The position numbers and the translations under genes are program-made. A DNA stretch of 64,000 nt from an uncultured Gammaproteobacteria bacterium (GTDB lineage Bacteria; Patescibacteriota; Patescibacteriia; UBA1558; GWA2-36-10). Shown here piece by piece: positions 3,703-18,015 of this stretch (positions are counted from its first letter, which is position 1; the number at the start of each line of letters is the position of its first letter). The stretch lies in contig CAZWYP010000002.1 in NCBI GenBank assembly GCA_964638415.1, forward strand, positions 97,997 through 161,996. Direction: 5' to 3'. The notes under the pieces were generated by a model, which saw only the letters and a program-made list of their open reading frames with translations, did no database searches and was not told the origin of the DNA.

Positions 3703-4947
3703 ATGGCTAGTAATAAGGAAATAATTACTGGTTTAGACGTTGGTAGCAGCGCTATCCGCATTGTCATGGGCCAAAGATTGGCAAACGGCTCCCTGCAGAT
3801 AATTGGAGCAGCGGATACTCAGGCTGAAGGCGTCAGCAAAGGCAGTATTACTTCCATTGAGGAAGCGGTTTCTTGTATTTCAGAGACTGTGGAGAAGTGT
3901 GAAAGAATGACCGGTTTTACTATTGATAAAATGATTGTAGGCATTTCCGGTACGCATATTAAGACTTTAAATAGCCGGGGAGTAGTGGCAGTTGCTAAAG
4001 CCAATGAGCAGGTGCAAGAAACTGATATTGATCGAGCTTTGGAGGCTGCCCAAGCCATTGCTACGCCGCCTAATTATGAGATTTTACACGTATTACCAAC
4101 CAATTACCATTTGGATGATCAGAAAAACCTTAAGGATCCAGTAGGTATGTCCGGGGTGCGCTTGGAAGTTGAGACCCAGATTATTATGGGTTTGTCTTCC
4201 CAGATAAAAAATTTAACCAAGTGTATTTATCGTACTGGTATTGATATTGAAGATTTGGCTTTTTCCATTTTAGCTACTGCTGAAGCGGTTCTGACTAAAA
4301 AACAAAGAGATTTAGGCGTAGCGGTAGTTAATATTGGAGAAGCCACCACTTCTTTGGCGGTTTTTGAGGAAGGAGATATTTTACATACTGCTGTTTTACC
4401 AATTGGTGCTGGGCATGTTACTAATGATTTAGCTATTGGTTTACGCACTTCGGTGGAAACAGCGGAAATGGTAAAACTGGATCAAGCCCAAGCATTATCT
4501 GAGCCGATTTCTAAGCGTGATGAAGTGGATTTGAATAAATATTCCGATGAAGAGAAAAAAGGCACCTTTGTTTACAAAAAAGACATCGCTTCTATTGCCG
4601 AGGCTAGAATGGAAGAGATTTTTAGTTTAGTCAATAAAGAGTTGAAAACAATCGGCAGAGATGGTAAATTACCAGCAGGTTTGGTGCTTACCGGCGGCGG
4701 CGCTAAGCTACCCTTGGTGGTAGATTTAGCTAAAGAGGTTTTTAAACTTCCGGTTTTTCTAGGTTTACCCACAGAACGTAATTTTCCCATTGATAAGCTT
4801 AATGACCCTCAATTTACCACAGCTTTAGGGCTGGTAATTTGGGCGGAGCGCAATCTTAGTTCCCATCAGAATTTTTTATCTAACTTTTCTTCAATAAAAA
4901 ACACCACCAACAAAATGGTAGGCTGGTTTAAATCTTTATTACCTTAA
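3703..4947 (+). CDS. ftsA: Cell division protein FtsA.
   Basis: Actin-like ATPase motifs (GLDVGSS...). Located directly upstream of ftsZ. Confidence 0.9.
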
Positions 4948-4952
4948 ATAAC

Positions 4953-6128
4953 ATGTCCAAGAAAAACATTCAAGAAGTATCACCATCAGTGGAGACTTTT
5001 GCTAACATCAAAGTAGTAGGAGTCGGCGGTTCCGGCGGTTCAGCAATTAATCGAATGGTTAATTCCAATATTAGAGGAGTGGAATTTATTGCTGTTAATA
5101 CCGATGCCCAGGCCTTACATCATTCTGTTTCTCCTAATAAGATTCACATTGGCCGCAATACTACTAAGGGCTTAGGAGCGGGCATGGATCCTGATTTGGG
5201 ATCAAAATCAGCGGAAGAAAATGAAGCGGATATTGTTGGTACTTTGACTGGTGCCGATATGGTTTTTATTACCTGCGGCTTGGGCGGCGGTACTGGCACG
5301 GGAGCCGCGCCGATTATTGCCGATATTGCCAGAGAAGTGGGCGCTTTAACCGTAGCGGTAGTGACTAAGCCTTTTACTTTTGAAGGCGTGCAGCGACGGG
5401 AAATTGCCGAGCGCGGTTTAGATCGCTTAATAGATAAAGTAGATACCATTATTACTATACCCAATGACCGCTTGTTGCAAATTATTGATAAAAAAACATC
5501 TTTATTAGAAGCATTTTCCATTGTTGATGAAGTTTTAAAACAGGGTGTGCAGGGAATTTCCGAATTAATTACCGTGCCAGGTTTGGTGAATGTTGACTTT
5601 GCCGATGTTAAGGCAATTATGAAACAAGCGGGTTCCGCTTTGATGGGTATTGGTAAAGCCACTGGTGAAAACAGAGCGCAGGAGGCTGCTAAAGCCGCAA
5701 TTGACAGCCCCTTATTAGAGTTATCAATTAATGGTGCAACTGGAGTTTTGTTCACCATTGCCGGCAGTTCTGATTTGTCCATGTTTGAAGTTAATGAAGC
5801 AGCAGAGGTAATTACTGCTGCTTGTGATCCAGAGGCTAAAGTTATTTTTGGCGCCGTGATTGACGAAAGTTTAGGCGACGAAGTAAAGGTGACGGTTATT
5901 GCTACTGGTTTCCGTGAACATAATGAACGTCAGCCAGAAAGAGCGCCAGTACAACCAAATATTTCTTACCAGGAAACTTTTGCTAAAAAAGCAGAAGAGC
6001 GCACTATTAAAAAGGCTTTTAATAAGGAGAGGGAAGAAGTAGAAGAGGTGGAAGAATTACCAAAAACCAAGGAAGAAGAAGAATTAGATATTCCTGCTTT
6101 CTTGCGTAAAAAGCTAAAGAATCATTAA
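4953..6128 (+). CDS. ftsZ: Cell division GTPase FtsZ.
   Basis: Tubulin signature [23 protein letters not shown]. Confidence 0.95.
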
Positions 6129-14146: not shown

Positions 14147-14151
14147 ATAAT

Positions 14152-14180
14152 AAAACTCCCTAAAATTTAGGGAGTTTTTG
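14152..14180 (+). terminator. Rho-independent terminator after ndk.
   Basis: AAAACTCCCTAAAATTTAGGGAGTTTTT hairpin plus T-run. Confidence 0.7.
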
Positions 14181-14239
14181 CTAATCTTAGTCTATTTGAT
14201 TTTGGACTTTATCAGTGATAAAATTAAAGGGTTCAAGGA

Positions 14240-14443
14240 GTAAATATTTGCAATTCTACAATTGCGCTAACAGGGATCTCAATATTTACCAAAATCGTGG
14301 TTTTGGTGTGCGAGAACCCACCTGACTTTCAGGGGTTAGCAAATAATTTACTGGCTTGAACATCTAAGAAACCATAAGATAATTATGGGGAACAAGAAGT
14401 AAAAGCCTGCTCTTTGGCAACTAGCCAATCAGCGGGCTTTTTG
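14240..14443 (+). ncRNA. Candidate small RNA or leader of about 200 nt, of unknown class.
   Basis: ORF-free interval. Possible promoter TTGATT-17-TAAAAT (14204-14232). Ends in a hairpin AAGCCTGCT...AGCGGGCTTTTT (14402-14443). Relatively GC-rich internal hairpins (GGTGTGCGAGAACCCACC). Confidence 0.2.
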
Positions 14444-14476
14444 ATATGATAAAAATATAAAAATTAAATAAAAAAT

Positions 14477-15139: not shown

Positions 15140-15769
15140 ATGTTATTTGAGTTATTATTTAAAAACCAAGAGCTGTTTTTGACCATTATTTTATCCATTA
15201 TTTACGCTTTGACCATTCATGAGTTTGCCCATGCCTGGGCCGCAACCGCTTTAGGCGACCAAACAGCAAAATATGCCGGTCGCTTATCTCTTAATCCTTT
15301 GCGCCATTTGGATTTTTTTGGAACCCTGATGCTGGTTTTTGCTGGATTTGGCTGGGGCAAGCCAGTTCCGGTTAATGTTTATAATTTACGCTGGAGCCGG
15401 TGGGGGGAGGCGGTTGTTTCACTCGCTGGGCCAGTTAGTAATTTTTTAAGCGTTATTTTTTTTATTATTCTATTCTCTTGGATCGGGCCCTTACTGCCGC
15501 CTAATAATTTATTATTCATTTTCCTTTCCAGTTTGATTATTGTTAATGCTATTTTGGGAATTTTTAACCTCATACCGATTCCGCCGCTGGATGGCTCTAA
15601 GATCTTATTTGCTTTCTTGCCGGATAGATTTAATCATCTCAAGCAGCAATTGTCTGTTAATGGTATCTGGATCCTCCTGGCATTATTAATCTTGGACGAT
15701 TTGACTCGTATTAATATTTTCGGACGGATAATAGATGGTTTTCTCAATATCATCTATTACTTCCTTTAA
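15140..15769 (+). CDS. Site-2 protease family (peptidase M50) membrane metalloprotease.
   Basis: HEFAHAWAA HExxH motif within a TM helix. Polytopic. About 209 aa. Confidence 0.7.
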   Translation: MLFELLFKNQELFLTIILSIIYALTIHEFAHAWAATALGDQTAKYAGRLSLNPLRHLDFFGTLMLVFAGFGWGKPVPVNVYNLRWSRWGEAVVSLAGPVSNFLSVIFFIILFSWIGPLLPPNNLLFIFLSSLIIVNAILGIFNLIPIPPLDGSKILFAFLPDRFNHLKQQLSVNGIWILLALLILDDLTRINIFGRIIDGFLNIIYYFL

Positions 15770-15781
15770 TTAATAATTATA

Positions 15782-15813
15782 ATAAGCCGGTTGCTTGACA
15801 AACCGGCTTTTTT
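15782..15813 (+). terminator. Rho-independent terminator after the M50 protease gene.
   Basis: AAGCCGGTT-gcttgaca-AACCGGCTTTTTT. Confidence 0.7.
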
Positions 15814-16380
15814 ATATTATGGTGAGAATATAAAGCGTTCTTTGCACGTAATTCACCTGAAAGCGCTGCTGCTTACATGCTAAGTGTAAGGTCAGGATTA
15901 GTCCCCTGGCCAAAGCAATTACCATGTCTATGCGTGGAGCACTTTCCTTGGCGCTTGCCTTGGTAGTACTAAAAATCTTTTTTCCAGAGGTTTCCGAACT
16001 TCTGTTGAAAATTATTATTAGTGCCCTAGGCATTCTCCTAGAAGCTATTGATCAAATACAGCTAACCTCAGGTTAGCACCACCATATTTAGACTTCTGCT
16101 CCGGCAGAAGTCTTTTCTTGACAAAAACAATATTTATCTGTATTTTAGTATAGATATATGAGTTCCAATTAAATTTGACTATAGTCAGCAATCCGTCGCT
16201 TACAGTTTGGGTATGGCCAAAAGTTCAGTCTATACTGGTCAAAATTTAGATCTGACTTACCTCCTCACTGTCCTCGGCGCGCCCGCCTTGATGTAGATTG
16301 CCTGCTGGCAATTCTGATTTGAACGCTGACTTAGTCATTAGCCCCTCTTGTGTTATGGCAGGAGGGGTGTTTTTTATCTC
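15814..16380 (+). other. ORF-poor, GC-enriched segment with two terminator-like hairpins (16090-16118 and about 16340-16378). It may hold one or two small RNAs of unknown class.
   Basis: No ORF of 60 aa or more on the plus strand. The only minus-strand ORF (15812..16033) has atypical composition. Hairpins AGACTTCTGC-tccg-GCAGAAGTCTTTT and GCCCCTC...GGAGGGGTGTTTTTT. Local GC is well above neighbouring genes. Confidence 0.25.
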
Positions 16381-16408
16381 TTGACAAAGTTTTTATTTTT
16401 TGTATAAT
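16381..16408 (+). promoter_or_regulatory. Near-consensus sigma70 promoter (TTGACA-16-TATAAT).
   Basis: ttgacaaagtttttattttttgtataat. It drives the ORF-free transcript below. Confidence 0.55.
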
Positions 16409-16414
16409 ACTATG

Positions 16415-16940
16415 GTTACCTCATGGTACGTCCTCTAAAATATTTGATTTGAAGTCAGCTCAATTCTTCAAAATTCTTGCCACATCAGGCTCACAGCTGT
16501 CCGCGCGTTGGTCCACCTCCTTATGAGGATATTGCACCACAAGCCGGAATTACAGACCTGAAACGTGCTCATGATGTGATTGTGAGGTTTTGAGCAATTG
16601 CTTGTTCGGTAATGACAGGAATTCTGTCGTCTTGCACTGGCAACGGTAGTAAGCCTACAAACAAACTGTCATTGATTAGAACCCGTCTCCGCTGAAAGGA
16701 GGGAGACAAAACGATTGTATTTCAATCTAGGATTAGCCAGCTAATATGAGTCATTTGGAGTATTCCGAAGTGGCCGCACACTATAGGCTGAGCATTTTGG
16801 GCATTTTACATGGCGCCCTATTTTCCTGATTGAAGTAGTTGAGCTGACTCATTTTTTTGAAAGTCTGCCGGCATTTTCTCCGGTGTTGGTGATGTTGCCA
16901 AGCAGACTTGCCAAAACCCGATAGCGTTTACGCCATCGGG
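16415..16940 (+). ncRNA. Candidate large structured ncRNA of about 525 nt, class unknown. Alternatively a MITE-like element.
   Basis: It lies between a consensus promoter and an intrinsic terminator (AAAACCCGAT...ATCGGGTTTTCTTTTT at 16904-16940). No ORF of 60 aa or more on either strand. GC-rich stems. An 11-bp long-range complement pairs 16453-16463 (AGTCAGCTCAA) with 16839-16849 (TTGAGCTGACT). No clear RNase P, tmRNA or SRP signature was found. Confidence 0.35.
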
Positions 16941-17021
16941 TTTTCTTTTTGACAATATTTTTTAATTAAATTAAGCTTAATTTCAGTCCATAGTTCTTAT
17001 TATTTTTGCAAGGAGACAGTT

Positions 17022-17558
17022 ATGCGTAGCTGGTTTTTGGCTTTGATCATGTTGGTTGTTGCTCTTCCATGTTTCGCTCAGATTAATGTGGATTTCAACA
17101 TTGGTAGCCAGTTTTCTTGGGTAGAGCAAGGTACGGAAGTATCAATTACTGTCCGTTCTGCCTATTGGCGGCCATATCTGGATTCGGTGGAAGTAATTTT
17201 GGATCCTGATCCTGATCCTGTGTTTGCAGACTTAGCTCCCAGTTTAGGGTATTTGGATCCTGATCAATATCCGGTGATACAGATCAATTGTGCATCTGGC
17301 CCCAGTGATTTTGGCTACGAAATGAATGTGATGATCAATGAAGATCTTGGCTTGGCTGGGCATGCTCCTGATTCCGCTCTGGTTATAGCTACCGTTGACT
17401 TTGTTGTACCCTATAGCCTGCAGCCAGAAACTGAATTCATTTTAGGCATTGTATTTTTTGGCTGGTCAAATAGTCCACCGGTCAATTGCTACCCAAGTGT
17501 TTGTTTTGATGTCGGGTGCACAGTGGTAACTCCTAGTTACCAAGCTATGCTCAGATAG
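17022..17558 (+). CDS. Secreted hypothetical protein with a signal peptide, DPDPDP motif and Cys pairs.
   Basis: MRSWFLALIMLVVALPCFAQ signal peptide. Codon usage is more GC-rich than the ribosomal genes. Confidence 0.45.
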   Translation: MRSWFLALIMLVVALPCFAQINVDFNIGSQFSWVEQGTEVSITVRSAYWRPYLDSVEVILDPDPDPVFADLAPSLGYLDPDQYPVIQINCASGPSDFGYEMNVMINEDLGLAGHAPDSALVIATVDFVVPYSLQPETEFILGIVFFGWSNSPPVNCYPSVCFDVGCTVVTPSYQAMLR

Positions 17559-17576
17559 AGCTCCTTTTTACCGCTT

Positions 17577-17610
17577 GCCCGCTTAAACCTATGGTTTAGG
17601 CGGGCTTTTT
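17577..17610 (+). terminator. Rho-independent terminator.
   Basis: GCCCGCTTAAACC-tatgg-GGTTTAGGCGGGCTTTTT. Confidence 0.7.
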
Positions 17611-17612
17611 GC

Positions 17613-17640
17613 TTGACAAACTTAGATACAGTAATATAAT
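17613..17640 (+). promoter_or_regulatory. Consensus-like sigma70 promoter (TTGACA-16-TATAAT, with a second TATAAT 5 nt downstream).
   Basis: cttgacaaacttagatacagtaatataattaatataatt. Confidence 0.5.
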
Positions 17641-17736
17641 TAATATAATTATTGTTCAATTATTTACGCCGTCTGCCTGCATAGGGCGACTATACTTGTT
17701 GGAAAACAGCCACCCCAAACCTCGGAGGAATCCTCT

Positions 17737-17820
17737 ATGATTGTGACGTCCAAGACGAACAAGAACACGACGGCCAAGAAGAAGAACGGCAATTTCGGCG
17801 CCAGCGCGGCCATCACCTAG
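17737..17820 (+). CDS. 27-codon GC3-rich small ORF (MIVTSKTNKNTTAKKKNGNFGASAAIT) with a GGAGGA Shine-Dalgarno sequence and its own terminator.
   Basis: GGAGGA lies 7 nt upstream of the ATG. Codons acg/tcc/aag/aac/gcc/ggc are atypical for this AT-rich genome. Followed by a GGTACG-tcag-CGTACC hairpin and terminator 17872-17909. Confidence 0.3.
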   Translation: MIVTSKTNKNTTAKKKNGNFGASAAIT

Positions 17821-17871
17821 TCGGCGCGCCAGCCGGCAAAAGTGGTACGTCAGCGTACCAAACCTTAACCA

Positions 17872-17909
17872 AGCCCCCTGAAGCTTCACCTTTTGGGGGC
17901 TTCATTTTG
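17872..17909 (+). terminator. Rho-independent terminator upstream of the rpsL promoter.
   Basis: AGCCCCC-tgaagcttcacctttt-GGGGGCTTCATTTT. Confidence 0.6.
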
Positions 17910-18015
17910 CTCTAAGTATTGACTTACTAAATTTAATATGCTACTTTATGGTAGCAATTTAAGGCAAAATTTGCTTTTTTATTTAATTTAAAAATTTACT
18001 AATCGGCACATCAAT

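Follow-up and report, generated by a model that had tools for sequence, protein, structure and literature searches.

Tandem sibling sRNA genes such as OmrA/OmrB, PrrF1/PrrF2 and LhrC1-5 each carry their own promoter and terminator, and the members of such sets are mutually alignable and conserved across species. Large non-coding RNAs (OLE, GOLLD, ROOL, HEARO, raiA), the GC-rich ncRNA islands, flexible or hypervariable islands at chromosomal hot spots and the genes for small hydrophobic proteins, including the type I toxins Hok, Fst and TisB and the membrane regulators AcrZ and MgrB, are the other systems closest to the locus analyzed here. This locus is a segment (positions 15770-17021) of a 64-kb stretch of DNA, hereafter the window, from a Komeilibacteria-like Patescibacteria genome, which a preliminary description had read as one or more large unclassified structured RNAs. 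For Patescibacteria and the candidate phyla radiation, a literature search on structured and non-coding RNAs brought up nothing relevant.

The segment shares features with each of these systems and differs from all of them. Like the sibling sRNA genes, two of its units, cassettes 2 and 3, are adjacent on one strand, have a promoter and a terminator each and share a short core (AGTCAGC/GCTGACT); unlike them, they do not align significantly with each other and no conservation was found for them in 220 loci, and cassette 3 (~530 nt) far exceeds typical sRNAs in length. Like OLE, GOLLD, ROOL, HEARO, raiA and the GC-rich ncRNA islands, the segment is ORF-poor, richer in GC than intergenic DNA, several hundred nt long and bounded by discrete signals. 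Unlike them, it has no Rfam match, its cassettes 2 and 3 show no conservation in the 220 loci and fold locally at background level, and its GC excess is common to the protein-coding cargo of relatives at the same island; the Rfam 15 models of OLE, GOLLD, ROOL, HEARO, raiA and group I/II introns gave no covariance-model match. As in hypervariable islands, the flanks (an M50 protease gene and rpsL) are conserved, the content differs among similarly related genomes, orphan secreted proteins, lipoproteins and small proteins make up the cargo, and the composition is atypical in relatives. Unlike such islands, its borders revealed no integrase, tRNA attachment site or direct repeats, and each cargo unit has a native-looking AT-rich promoter and terminator.

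Organization of the segment and its surroundings

The window is 92.6% coding, and 15770-16952 is its longest stretch lacking a stop-to-stop ORF of at least 100 codons. Our ORF scan agreed that the minus-strand frame 15812-16033 is the sole ORF of at least 60 aa in the segment. The features of the segment and of the DNA up to rpsL are as follows.

15784-15809, + strand: intrinsic terminator (hairpin with 9-bp stem, T-run) of the M50 protease gene that precedes the segment (15140-15769)
15795-15823, + strand: cassette 1 promoter-like site, TTGACA-17-TATGGT, 10/12 consensus positions
15830-15923, + strand: cassette 1 5' leader, ~95 nt, its start placed from the promoter
15924 or 15930-16076, + strand: small-protein gene, 50 aa (ATG 15924) or 48 aa (conserved ATG 15930), from homology and codon-position divergence
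16090-16113, + strand: cassette 1 terminator, 10-bp stem, loop of 4, T-run, from hairpin search and folding scan
16118-16146, + strand: cassette 2 promoter-like site, TTGACA-17-TATTTT, 10/12
16153-16340, + strand: cassette 2 body, ~190 nt, GC 0.44, orphan, no homologue in the searched loci
16341-16368, + strand: cassette 2 terminator, 11-bp stem, T-run, from hairpin search
16381-16408, + strand: cassette 3 promoter, TTGACA-16-TATAAT, 12/12
16415-16912, + strand: cassette 3 body, ~500 nt, GC 0.45, orphan, no homologue in the searched loci
16913-16944, + strand: cassette 3 terminator, 15-nt arms (16913-16927/16930-16944) 93% complementary, followed by TTTTCTTTTT, from hairpin search and folding scan
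16949-17605, + strand: cassette 4, with promoter-like TTGACA at 16949, a gene and a terminator at ~17571-17605, from signal and ORF search
17022-17558, + strand: cassette 4 gene, 178 aa, with Shine-Dalgarno (SD) sequence and signal-peptide-like N-terminus, from ORF search
17613-17905, + strand: cassette 5, promoter TTGACA...TATAAT and terminator, from signal search
17737-17820, + strand: cassette 5 ORF, 27 aa, Lys-rich, SD-led, from ORF search
17919 and 18016, + strand: rpsL promoter and rpsL start

The near-perfect promoter of the preliminary description, at 16381-16408, matches the consensus at all 12 positions, and its three terminators were recovered at 16090-16113, 16341-16368 and, for the third, 16913-16944. 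Two additional promoter-like sites (15795-15823 and 16118-16146, both 10/12) had gone unnoticed. The upstream part, described as partitioned by hairpins, instead holds separate units: since each of these sites lies right after a terminator, the segment resolves into three tandem monocistronic cassettes of ~285, 220 and 530 nt, as predicted from the sequence signals between promoter and terminator. The -35 hexamer of cassette 1 sits in the loop of the M50 terminator hairpin 15784-15809, and the cassette 2 site begins 5 nt after the cassette 1 terminator. Half of the plus-strand TTGAC[AT]-N-TAnnnT sites of the whole window (6/12) fall within the 2.1 kb of 15795-17919. The segment would make up the first three members of an array of five monocistronic cassettes placed back to back. 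In each of them a putative sigma-70-type promoter, at most ~12 nt from the terminator before it, is followed by a short body that ends in an intrinsic terminator.

Measured against the window as a whole, the reported GC enrichment is slight (0.408 vs 0.385); it is clear against other intergenic DNA (0.43-0.45 in the cassettes, 0.28 in other intergenic DNA and 0.39 in coding DNA of the window). Its reading as an ncRNA signature is not supported; the excess is a property of the whole island that relatives' protein genes share. Rfam 15 was searched at gathering score over the 64 kb and at E <= 10 with permissive filters over 15600-17200; no family reached gathering score in the window, and the E-value mode returned terminator-type noise only. 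ARAGORN found no tRNA or tmRNA in the window. In a 120-nt sliding folding scan (background mean z -0.47, sd 1.3), only the terminators and one hairpin within the cassette 1 ORF fell below the 5th percentile of the background.

The truly conserved structured RNA of this neighborhood is found 1.4 kb upstream of the segment, at 14225-14345; it covaries and matches no Rfam family.

By synteny, we compared 80 GTDB loci retrieved via the M50 protein together with contigs encoding six M50 and four cassette 1 homologues. An M50 gene followed by rpsL is a conserved arrangement, with a gap of 67-364 nt in most of 42 loci versus 2268 nt here. Relatives of similar M50 identity either lack the island (L083, L086, L221) or carry unrelated cargo (L082, L087, L002, L029, L022, L184, L210, L212). 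In relatives this locus is 52-65% GC, with protein genes of GC3 0.8-0.9, and only promoters and protein genes are conserved among these islands. The gap content of the fetched loci was not alignable with the window except at the cassette 3 promoter. This promoter is 84-88% identical over 33-38 nt to the first post-M50 promoter in L029, L022 and L184; no other part of the segment is conserved at the M50-rpsL locus of relatives. A metagenome scan with the promoter pattern returned 120 stretches and showed it to be a generic strong promoter; only L184, a new relative, and L112, a re-match of the contig already taken as L029, were relevant.

Cassette 3 may therefore be said to occupy the position of the relatives' cassette, which is served by the same conserved promoter and there encodes small proteins; its content here is unrelated and could be diverged or decaying small-ORF cargo. 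Cassettes 1 and 2 would lie between the M50 gene and this ancestral island promoter. The relatives' island proteins (a WLLPDD peptide, a lipoprotein and a K-rich peptide) gave no significant match to the window, and the gene after M50 in L082, the closest relative, shows no similarity that would mark a pseudogene of it in the window. For the 178-aa protein of cassette 4, likewise an orphan, a search of 5.8 billion proteins brought up nothing but the protein itself. Taken together, the data make it reasonably probable that a five-unit array fills a lineage-specific, fast-turnover island from the M50 gene to the rpsL operon, with cassette 1 a protein gene and cassettes 2 and 3 orphan transcripts without known family or demonstrable structure.

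A small hydrophobic protein gene in cassette 1

Homology and the pattern of divergence show cassette 1 to be an ordinary protein-coding gene for a predicted hydrophobic protein of 48-50 aa, which no gene caller had annotated. The preliminary description had allowed for a missed protein gene in an alternative genetic code; a gene had indeed been missed, but it uses the standard code. Its product, MSMRGALSLALALVVLKIFFPEVSELLLKIIISALGILLEAIDQIQLTSG, has a mean Kyte-Doolittle hydropathy of 1.1-2.3 in 15-residue windows and a net charge of ~ -1, and is probably inserted into the membrane. A phmmer search of 1.84 billion representatives returned four matches of 46-54 aa (P0122-P0125, E 2.1e-7 to 6.2e-4), which align end to end with residues 1-45 of the 50 at 46-62% identity in the alignment, 64% identity being given for the best match (E 2.1e-7). 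Gly5, Ala6, Leu9, Leu16, Phe19 and Pro21 are invariant. By these alignments the protein belongs to a small uncharacterised family that is found at other loci in other Patescibacteria; the genomic neighborhoods of its homologues differ, and no member was found in viral contigs or PHROGs.

The closest comparison is with L214, to which promoter, leader and ORF are 76% identical. Over codons 1-25, 9 are identical, 12 differ synonymously only and 4 non-synonymously, and the nucleotide differences by codon position 1/2/3 number 4/2/14, a distribution that reveals purifying selection at the protein level. The GC1>GC2,GC3 pattern of the ORF is that of a neighboring real gene and its codon score is 0.038 per codon. 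The minus-strand frame 15812-16033 (73 aa) was rejected as a gene; it has a negative codon score and no Pfam match and overlaps the conserved plus-strand ORF, and is a shadow ORF opposite the plus-strand gene.

The flanking signals are partly conserved. Terminator hairpins are present at all five homologue loci (the window, L214, L215, L219 and L220), while aligned TTGAC promoters are found in the window, L214 and L220 and are not evident in L215 and L219; in L214 and L220 the motif upstream of the homologous gene is likewise TTGACAA. The leader contains a hairpin at 15872-15890 (CUUACAU-GCUAA-GUGUAAG), for which L220 has UUAUACA/UGUAUAA, so that the stem is kept via changes on both sides in a comparison of three sequences only. 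Across the leaders of all five homologues there is no robust common fold, and the hairpin is common to the three closest only. Folded without its terminator, cassette 1 has a z of -3.5 against a background of -0.73 +/- 0.68.

The resemblance to described small-protein genes is one of kind. Like Hok, Fst, TisB, AcrZ and MgrB, the cassette 1 product is hydrophobic and at most 50 aa long, and like their genes cassette 1 is monocistronic, with a long leader that carries a conserved hairpin, no SD sequence and its own terminator. Unlike them, it is without sequence relation to any named family; the nearest resemblance, to the first helix of MscL, is sub-threshold (E 0.009, 16 bits vs a cut-off of 225). 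A small hydrophobic ORF within an mRNA of predicted structure is what a type I toxin-antitoxin system would present, but unlike most toxins, which are cationic, the protein has a slight negative charge, and unlike in type I systems no antisense RNA or antitoxin partner was identified. The sole minus-strand promoter-like site nearby (15801-15773, 9/12) is situated upstream and faces away from the gene. Complementarity between cassettes 1 and 2 amounts to only 12 nt, in the spacer of the cassette 2 promoter, and cassette 1 homologues occur without cassette 2.

Cassettes 2 and 3

Cassettes 2 and 3 belong to no known RNA family, and neither is demonstrably a structured RNA. Searches of the 220 fetched loci, 1.6 Mb in all, with blastn, nhmmer and tblastn turned up no homologue of either; there was no match in phage and plasmid DNA collections and none to an Rfam family, and neither cassette contains an SD-led ORF of at least 18 aa or a codon-usage signal. 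Without its terminator, cassette 2 as a whole unit folds with a z of -1.9. Cassette 3 has a z of -5.4 at full length and -3.3 without its terminator, and 490-nt background windows reach -4.6. The 120-nt windows inside the two cassettes span z +0.7 to -1.6 (background mean -0.47), so that their folding energies are not clearly beyond the genomic background, as those of a novel structured ncRNA should be. The proposed large structured RNA fares unevenly: discrete promoter-to-terminator units outside any known RNA family are indeed present, but the first ~300 nt are a protein gene and the interiors of the other two units, which fold like background, offer no positive evidence for it. The analysis lends no support to a novel class of large structured RNA, and the ~840 nt of cassettes 2 and 3 may still be untranslated transcripts. 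As read from the signals, cassette 2 would yield a short orphan transcript of ~220 nt and cassette 3 would still be transcribed into an RNA of ~530 nt.

Within these bodies some elements stand out. In cassette 2, 16176-16189 (TGACTATAGTCAGC) is able to pair with 16325-16337 (GCTGACTTAGTCA) in a 13-bp closing helix, and cassette 3 contains a perfect 11-bp long-range helix between 16453-16463 and 16839-16849. The arms of both helices share the 7-nt core AGTCAGC/GCTGACT, by which cassette 2 is possibly related to cassette 3, and TGACT/AGTCA pentamers occur 8 times versus 1.8 expected. An origin of the two as paralogues was rejected, their local alignment being not significant (z 2.6) and exceeded in score by shuffles. 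The same pairs of inverted arms might be the terminal repeats of a MITE-like element, for which the 64-kb window showed no other copy and no flanking duplication. The longest ATG ORF of cassette 2 has 27 aa (16213-16296) and no SD sequence. Cassette 3 carries CACCTCCTTA at 16514-16523 and the complementary AAGGAGG at 16696-16702. Its first ~180 nt, in frame 16423-16593, display a codon-like GC periodicity (0.58/0.45/0.30 by codon position, the spread reaching at least the 99th percentile of the null); this frame comprises 56 codons, with a single TGA at 16450 that would break it once and no TAA or TAG. The remainder, 16594-16911, shows no periodicity.

These transcripts, provisionally orphans, could be lineage-specific sRNAs, micropeptide mRNAs or decaying island cargo. 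That consensus promoters and strong terminators surround 840 nt of apparently non-coding DNA in so densely coding a window argues that cassettes 2 and 3 are kept for a function, as sRNAs more than as decaying remnants, and the shared core helix and pentamer excess hint at a common RNA- or DNA-level architecture that our best explanation leaves unexplained. If they were functional lineage-specific ncRNAs, they might be sibling sRNAs with an AGUCAGC/GCUGACU closing helix that act by base-pairing, one candidate pairing element being an anti-Shine-Dalgarno-like CCUCC / CACCUCCUUA at 16259 and 16514. Their own promoters and terminators, a GC content of 0.44-0.45 vs 0.28 in other intergenic DNA, the lack of SD-led ORFs and codon signal, the shared core of the closing helices, the enriched palindromic motif and the full-length z of cassette 3 all fit this proposal, as does the occurrence of ACCTCCT only three times on the plus strand of the 64 kb, two of them in these cassettes. 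We nevertheless regard it as unlikely: no conservation was found even in L082, the closest relative at the locus, interior folding is at background level, the two cassettes do not align significantly, the high GC is an island property seen also in relatives' protein-coding cargo, and the CCTCC of cassette 3 lies in the codon-periodic frame, where it encodes PPPY. The same periodicity (16420-16620) would be expected if the cassettes were SD-less mRNAs for very small proteins, like cassette 1 and rpsL; candidates are three ORFs of 27 aa (at 16213, 16612 and 16746) and one of 38 aa that begins with TTG (16477-16593). Cassette 1 proves that SD-less small genes have been overlooked here, the equivalent cassettes of relatives encode peptides of 25-50 aa, and the stop-free stretch 16453-16590 (46 codons, which holds the 38-aa ORF) scores 0.06 per codon vs 0.038 for cassette 1. 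Yet Pfam matches none of the candidate ORFs, no gene finder of the public collection called one, 5.8 billion proteins include no relative of the translated cassette 3 frame, 27-aa ORFs are expected by chance and most of cassette 3 (16594-16911) is aperiodic, which together make this explanation distinctly unlikely.

Two further identities were considered for these units, both of far lower probability. A normal-sized protein gene hidden by an alternative code in which TGA is sense would occupy frame 16408-16965, whose 185 codons include 8 TGA and no TAA or TAG; no other frame stood out under the alternative codes tried. Such a frame arises in only ~3% of Markov shuffles and is periodic at its 5' end, but its presence (p ~0.03) is explained by the TGA-rich, TAA-poor composition of the whole of cassette 3 (19 vs 4), in which TGA is similarly frequent in all three plus-strand frames (6-8 each). 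Conserved genes, including EF-G and EF-Tu, are intact under code 11, TGA ends 4 of the 44 long ORFs of the window, the frame passes through the terminator hairpin, and its translation with X at TGA has no homologue even at E <= 10. An alternative-code gene in cassette 3 is thus largely refuted and we consider it very improbable. A strong promoter, a discrete terminator and plausible lengths could also suit a highly divergent housekeeping RNA (RNase P RNA, tmRNA, SRP RNA or 6S RNA), the first three of which the preliminary description had suggested in divergent form. Within the reach of Rfam and ARAGORN these are excluded: there was no match to the respective models at E <= 10 with permissive filters over 15600-17200, and ARAGORN found no tmRNA. 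Close relatives moreover lack the units at this locus and the sequence of the units did not turn up elsewhere, whereas a housekeeping RNA should be conserved, like the RNA at 14225-14345. Given this lack of conservation, a housekeeping identity appears effectively refuted, with only the slightest chance left to it.

Implications for Patescibacteria

The finding is mostly ordinary. It cautions that in compact, AT-rich Patescibacteria an ORF-free, GC-richer stretch with a perfect promoter and terminator does not in itself amount to a structured-RNA gene; of the present segment, one third is an overlooked 50-aa protein gene and the rest unconserved island cargo. A bolder combination, in which the M50-rpsL gap is a dedicated expression slot with a conserved strong promoter and rapidly exchanged, individually terminated cassettes, and in which cassettes 2 and 3 are also new lineage-specific regulatory RNAs whose AGUCAGC/GCUGACU closing helix and anti-Shine-Dalgarno-like CCUCC would target ribosome-binding sites, strikes us as distinctly unlikely as a whole. 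What is new is a small hydrophobic protein family at varied loci in Patescibacteria, and a hot spot of recombination or insertion that lies between the M50 gene and rpsL, with its cargo under native-looking promoters. In relatives this cargo is strikingly GC-rich and comprises orphan lipoproteins and peptides, possible host-interaction factors in these episymbionts.

Promoter-to-terminator cassettes between the M50 protease gene and rpsL

The flagged segment (15770-17021), which contains the window's longest run of sequence lacking any ORF of at least 100 codons, is flanked by the gene for an M50 site-2 protease, whose closest named relatives in a protein search are from Candidatus Komeilibacteria, and by the rpsL operon. 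The window, part of a Patescibacteria chromosome, is ~93% coding with a GC content of 38.5%. The preliminary description had read the segment as gene-free DNA specifying one or more large structured RNAs; its consensus promoter and three terminators were borne out, the latter being confirmed as real, and the signals are arranged as follows.

Features of the M50-rpsL interval
15140-15769: M50 site-2 protease gene, left flank
15795-15823, + strand: promoter-like site (10/12)
about 15830-16120, + strand: cassette 1 (c1), monocistronic
15924-16076, + strand: c1 ORF, 50 aa (48 aa if started at the conserved ATG 15930)
16090-16113, + strand: terminator
16118-16146, + strand: promoter-like site (10/12)
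about 16153-16375, + strand: cassette 2 (c2), monocistronic
16341-16368, + strand: terminator
16381-16408, + strand: c3 promoter, perfect TTGACA-16-TATAAT
about 16415-16950, + strand: cassette 3 (c3), monocistronic
16913-16944, + strand: terminator
16949, + strand: promoter of cassette 4, then a 178-aa gene (17022-17558) and a terminator, the same pattern as in c1-c3
17613-17905, + strand: cassette 5, with promoter at 17613, Shine-Dalgarno (SD)-led 27-aa Lys-rich ORF (17737-17820) and terminator
17919, + strand: rpsL promoter, directly after cassette 5
18016: start of the rpsL-rpsG-fusA-tuf operon, right flank

Each promoter-like site begins a few nucleotides from the previous terminator, and this placement of a promoter directly after each terminator resolves the 1.25 kb into three tandem monocistronic cassettes, the first three units of a five-cassette array. 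Of the twelve TTGAC[AT]-N-TAnnnT sites that the 64 kb has on its + strand, six fall within the 2.1 kb of this array. These signals lead us to infer that each cassette yields a discrete RNA. The 178-aa protein of cassette 4 combines a signal-peptide-like N-terminus with an Asp/Pro-rich stretch, belongs to no Pfam family and matched only itself among 5.8 billion proteins. The cassette 5 ORF (MIVTSKTNKNTTAKKKNGNFGASAAIT) displays strong GC periodicity.

The small-protein gene of cassette 1

No gene caller recorded the c1 ORF. In a phmmer search of 1.84 billion cluster representatives its product gave end-to-end alignments with four proteins, 46-54 aa long (E 2.1e-7 to 6.2e-4; 46-62% identity in the alignment), which share the N-terminal motif MRGALSLALALVVLKIFFPEV. 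Their genes are monocistronic, have their own terminators and lie in varied neighbourhoods on other Patescibacteria-type contigs. At the DNA level c1 shares 76% identity with the locus of the nearest homologue (L214) across promoter, leader and ORF; in the first 25 codons 12 differences are synonymous only and 4 non-synonymous, with 4/2/14 nucleotide differences by codon position, and such mostly synonymous, third-position change is what a translated gene would be expected to show. GC is higher at the first codon position than at the second and third, as in the neighbouring real gene. The ORF lacks an SD sequence, as does rpsL of this genome. The product has no family match in Pfam, NCBIfam, PHROG or PDB and resembles only the first helix of MscL, below threshold. 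These comparisons identify c1 as a conserved + strand protein gene, so the view of the segment as holding no gene falls, and the 73-aa minus-strand ORF that had been singled out in it is the shadow of the c1 gene. The c1 ORF also contains the only interior stretch of the segment whose local folding is unusual (15940-16059, z -3.7).

The most widespread homologue (P0124, on 21 contigs) is encoded directly 3' of a tyrosine recombinase (Phage_integrase) gene (L215-L218, 3795-5162), a hint that c1-type small genes may travel with mobile DNA; no integrase was found near the c1 gene in the window.

The M50-rpsL gap in relatives

The order M50 then rpsL is widely conserved in Patescibacteria; across 42 loci the gap mostly measures 67-364 nt, versus 2268 nt in the window. 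Among the relatives compared (M50 59-76% identical to that of the window) the gap is only about 100-145 nt in L083-85, L086 and L221/222, and elsewhere it holds varied cargo.

Gap content in fetched relative loci
L087: prs gene and a 150-nt cassette
L002: two short cassettes
L212: three ORF-poor cassettes
L082, closest relative: a different protein gene
L029, L022, L184, L210: GC-rich arrays (GC-rich islands at L029 6700-7765, L022 6675-8715, L184 3219-5290)

The L029, L022 and L184 islands reach a local GC of 52-65% versus ~39% for their genomes, and AT-rich, native-looking promoters and terminators flank their GC3-rich genes, a composition contrast that hints at a foreign origin in the recent past or at unusual selection. 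The arrays carry real protein genes (GC3 0.8-0.9), among them a 216-aa lipoprotein (L184 vs L022 52% identical, E 1e-75) and a small "WLLPDD" protein starting M-L-x-W-L-L-P-D-D (L184 vs L029 49% identical, E 8e-8). Lys-rich peptides of ~35 aa ending ...IA are also encoded there (L022 8552-8655; L184 about 4100-4210); they match each other weakly (E 0.006), and the similar cassette 5 peptide has no significant match to them. The relatives' island proteins and DNA have no match to the window except at the c3 promoter: in L029, L022 and L184 the first promoter that follows M50 shares 84-88% identity with it. By position, c3 corresponds to the cassette that this conserved promoter drives in the relatives; c1 and c2 are placed between the M50 gene and the promoter. 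With short gaps or unrelated cargo in relatives and little shared with the window, the locus is, by this comparison, a fast-turnover island.

The ~250-nt 5' leaders of the lipoprotein genes in L184 (about 4290-4565) and L210 (about 4940-5212) are alike by eye, one reading GTTTGTAAAAGTTCGTTGCA...TTAATTTATAGATTTCACGCAACTTTTGC and the other GTTTGTTAAAGTTCATTGAA...TTAATTTATAGATCGTTCACGCAGCTTTTGG, a likeness that blastn of the island DNA did not report; they may contain a conserved leader element.

The GC enrichment noted earlier stands relative to other intergenic DNA (0.43-0.45 in c1-c3 vs 0.28; coding DNA 0.39) and is marginal against the window average (0.408 vs 0.385). It had been taken as a sign of structured RNA, but protein genes in the relatives' islands are GC-rich too; raised GC is a property of island cargo, protein genes included, and not a signature of RNA structure.

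Cassettes 2 and 3 and the large-RNA reading

The Rfam check that had been proposed assigned no known family to the segment. No Rfam 15 family reached its gathering score anywhere in the 64-kb window, and a permissive E-value filter over 15600-17200 returned weak terminator-type matches only, with none to RNase P, tmRNA, SRP, 6S or large RNAs. ARAGORN found neither tRNA nor tmRNA, and nothing similar to the segment occurs in phage and plasmid collections. Known RNA families are absent from the segment.

A structured RNA in these data is exemplified by a unit just downstream of ndk, in the gap (14147-14476) before the next gene.

The ndk-downstream RNA
14196-14440, + strand: conserved structured RNA, core 14225-14345
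within this unit, + strand: its own promoter-like TTGATT-17-TAAAAT and terminator (14403-14440)

The core is 88% identical in nucleotides to L082, whose M50 protein is only 76% identical, and in a profile search 13 distinct Patescibacteria loci carry the core after ndk. RNAalifold predicted 16 pairs, and compensatory changes are seen in 12 of these; 91.8% of cells pair, compared with 70.6% in shuffles, of which 0/500 attain the real figure, and no more than 53.5% with slid partners. UCUACAA, GGG...CCC, a CGUGG loop and UGCG are among its invariant elements. With no Rfam 15 match at E <=10, it looks like a new RNA motif.

c2 and c3 display none of these features. Full-length fold z-scores are -5.4 for c3 and -5.8 for c1, with much of the signal from terminators; without these the + strand values are -3.5 (c1), -1.9 (c2) and -3.3 (c3), against a background of -0.73 +/- 0.68 at 260 nt and -1.37 +/- 1.65 at 490 nt (minimum -4.6). 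In a 120-nt sliding scan the c2 and c3 interiors (z +0.7 to -1.6) are indistinguishable from background, and blastn, nhmmer and tblastn found no homologues among 220 fetched loci (1.6 Mb). c2 and c3 therefore have neither conservation among these loci nor exceptional local structure. A few background control windows were very stable (z -4.6 and -3.9 at 490 nt, -7.3 at 120 nt) and may be terminators or other structured elements, e.g. ribosomal-protein operon leaders.

Both cassettes can close by a helix with the common core AGTCAGC/GCTGACT, although their alignment is not significant. TGACT/AGTCA pentamers number 8 versus 1.8 expected, and the window's two TGACT-N(0-3)-AGTCA palindromes are both in c2. 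c3 contains CACCTCCTTA, which is identical to the 16S rRNA 3' tail, with a complementary AAGGAGG 173 nt downstream.

Since c1 is a protein gene and c2 and c3 are unconserved and structurally unexceptional, the data lend no support to a new class of large structured RNA, or to a divergent housekeeping RNA, which finds no Rfam or ARAGORN match. That c2 and c3 are functional lineage-specific sRNAs is a reading that their own promoters and terminators would accommodate; their orphan status, which holds among the fetched loci, with metagenome and genome collections scanned by M50 anchor and promoter pattern, leaves us considering it unlikely.

Micropeptide mRNAs we regard as quite improbable. Neither cassette has an SD-led ORF of at least 18 aa, and the best six-frame codon score is <=0.08 per codon versus 0.2-0.3 in the adjacent gene. 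The first ~180 nt of c3 do show codon-like periodicity (GC 0.58/0.45/0.30 by position, with a spread no lower than the null's 99th percentile) in a frame running from ATG 16423 to 16593, interrupted by TGA at 16450. This frame has 8 TGA and no TAA or TAG up to 16965 (p about 0.03), and c3 has 19 TGA versus 4 TAA (1248 versus 1847 window-wide). An alternative-code gene was rejected, because each of the three frames holds a similar number of TGA codons (6-8), code 11 leaves the window's conserved genes intact, and the translation with X at TGA found no homologue even at E <=10 in the word-indexed protein search. Such searches covered M50, the 178-aa protein and this translation; the exhaustive search was that of the c1 ORF. 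A decayed or very short coding remnant in c3 is possible.

We favour the reading in which the conserved island promoter would drive, in c3, small-ORF cargo that has diverged or is decaying, and c2 would be a short orphan transcript. In so compact a genome, their intact consensus signals argue for some function of both cassettes.
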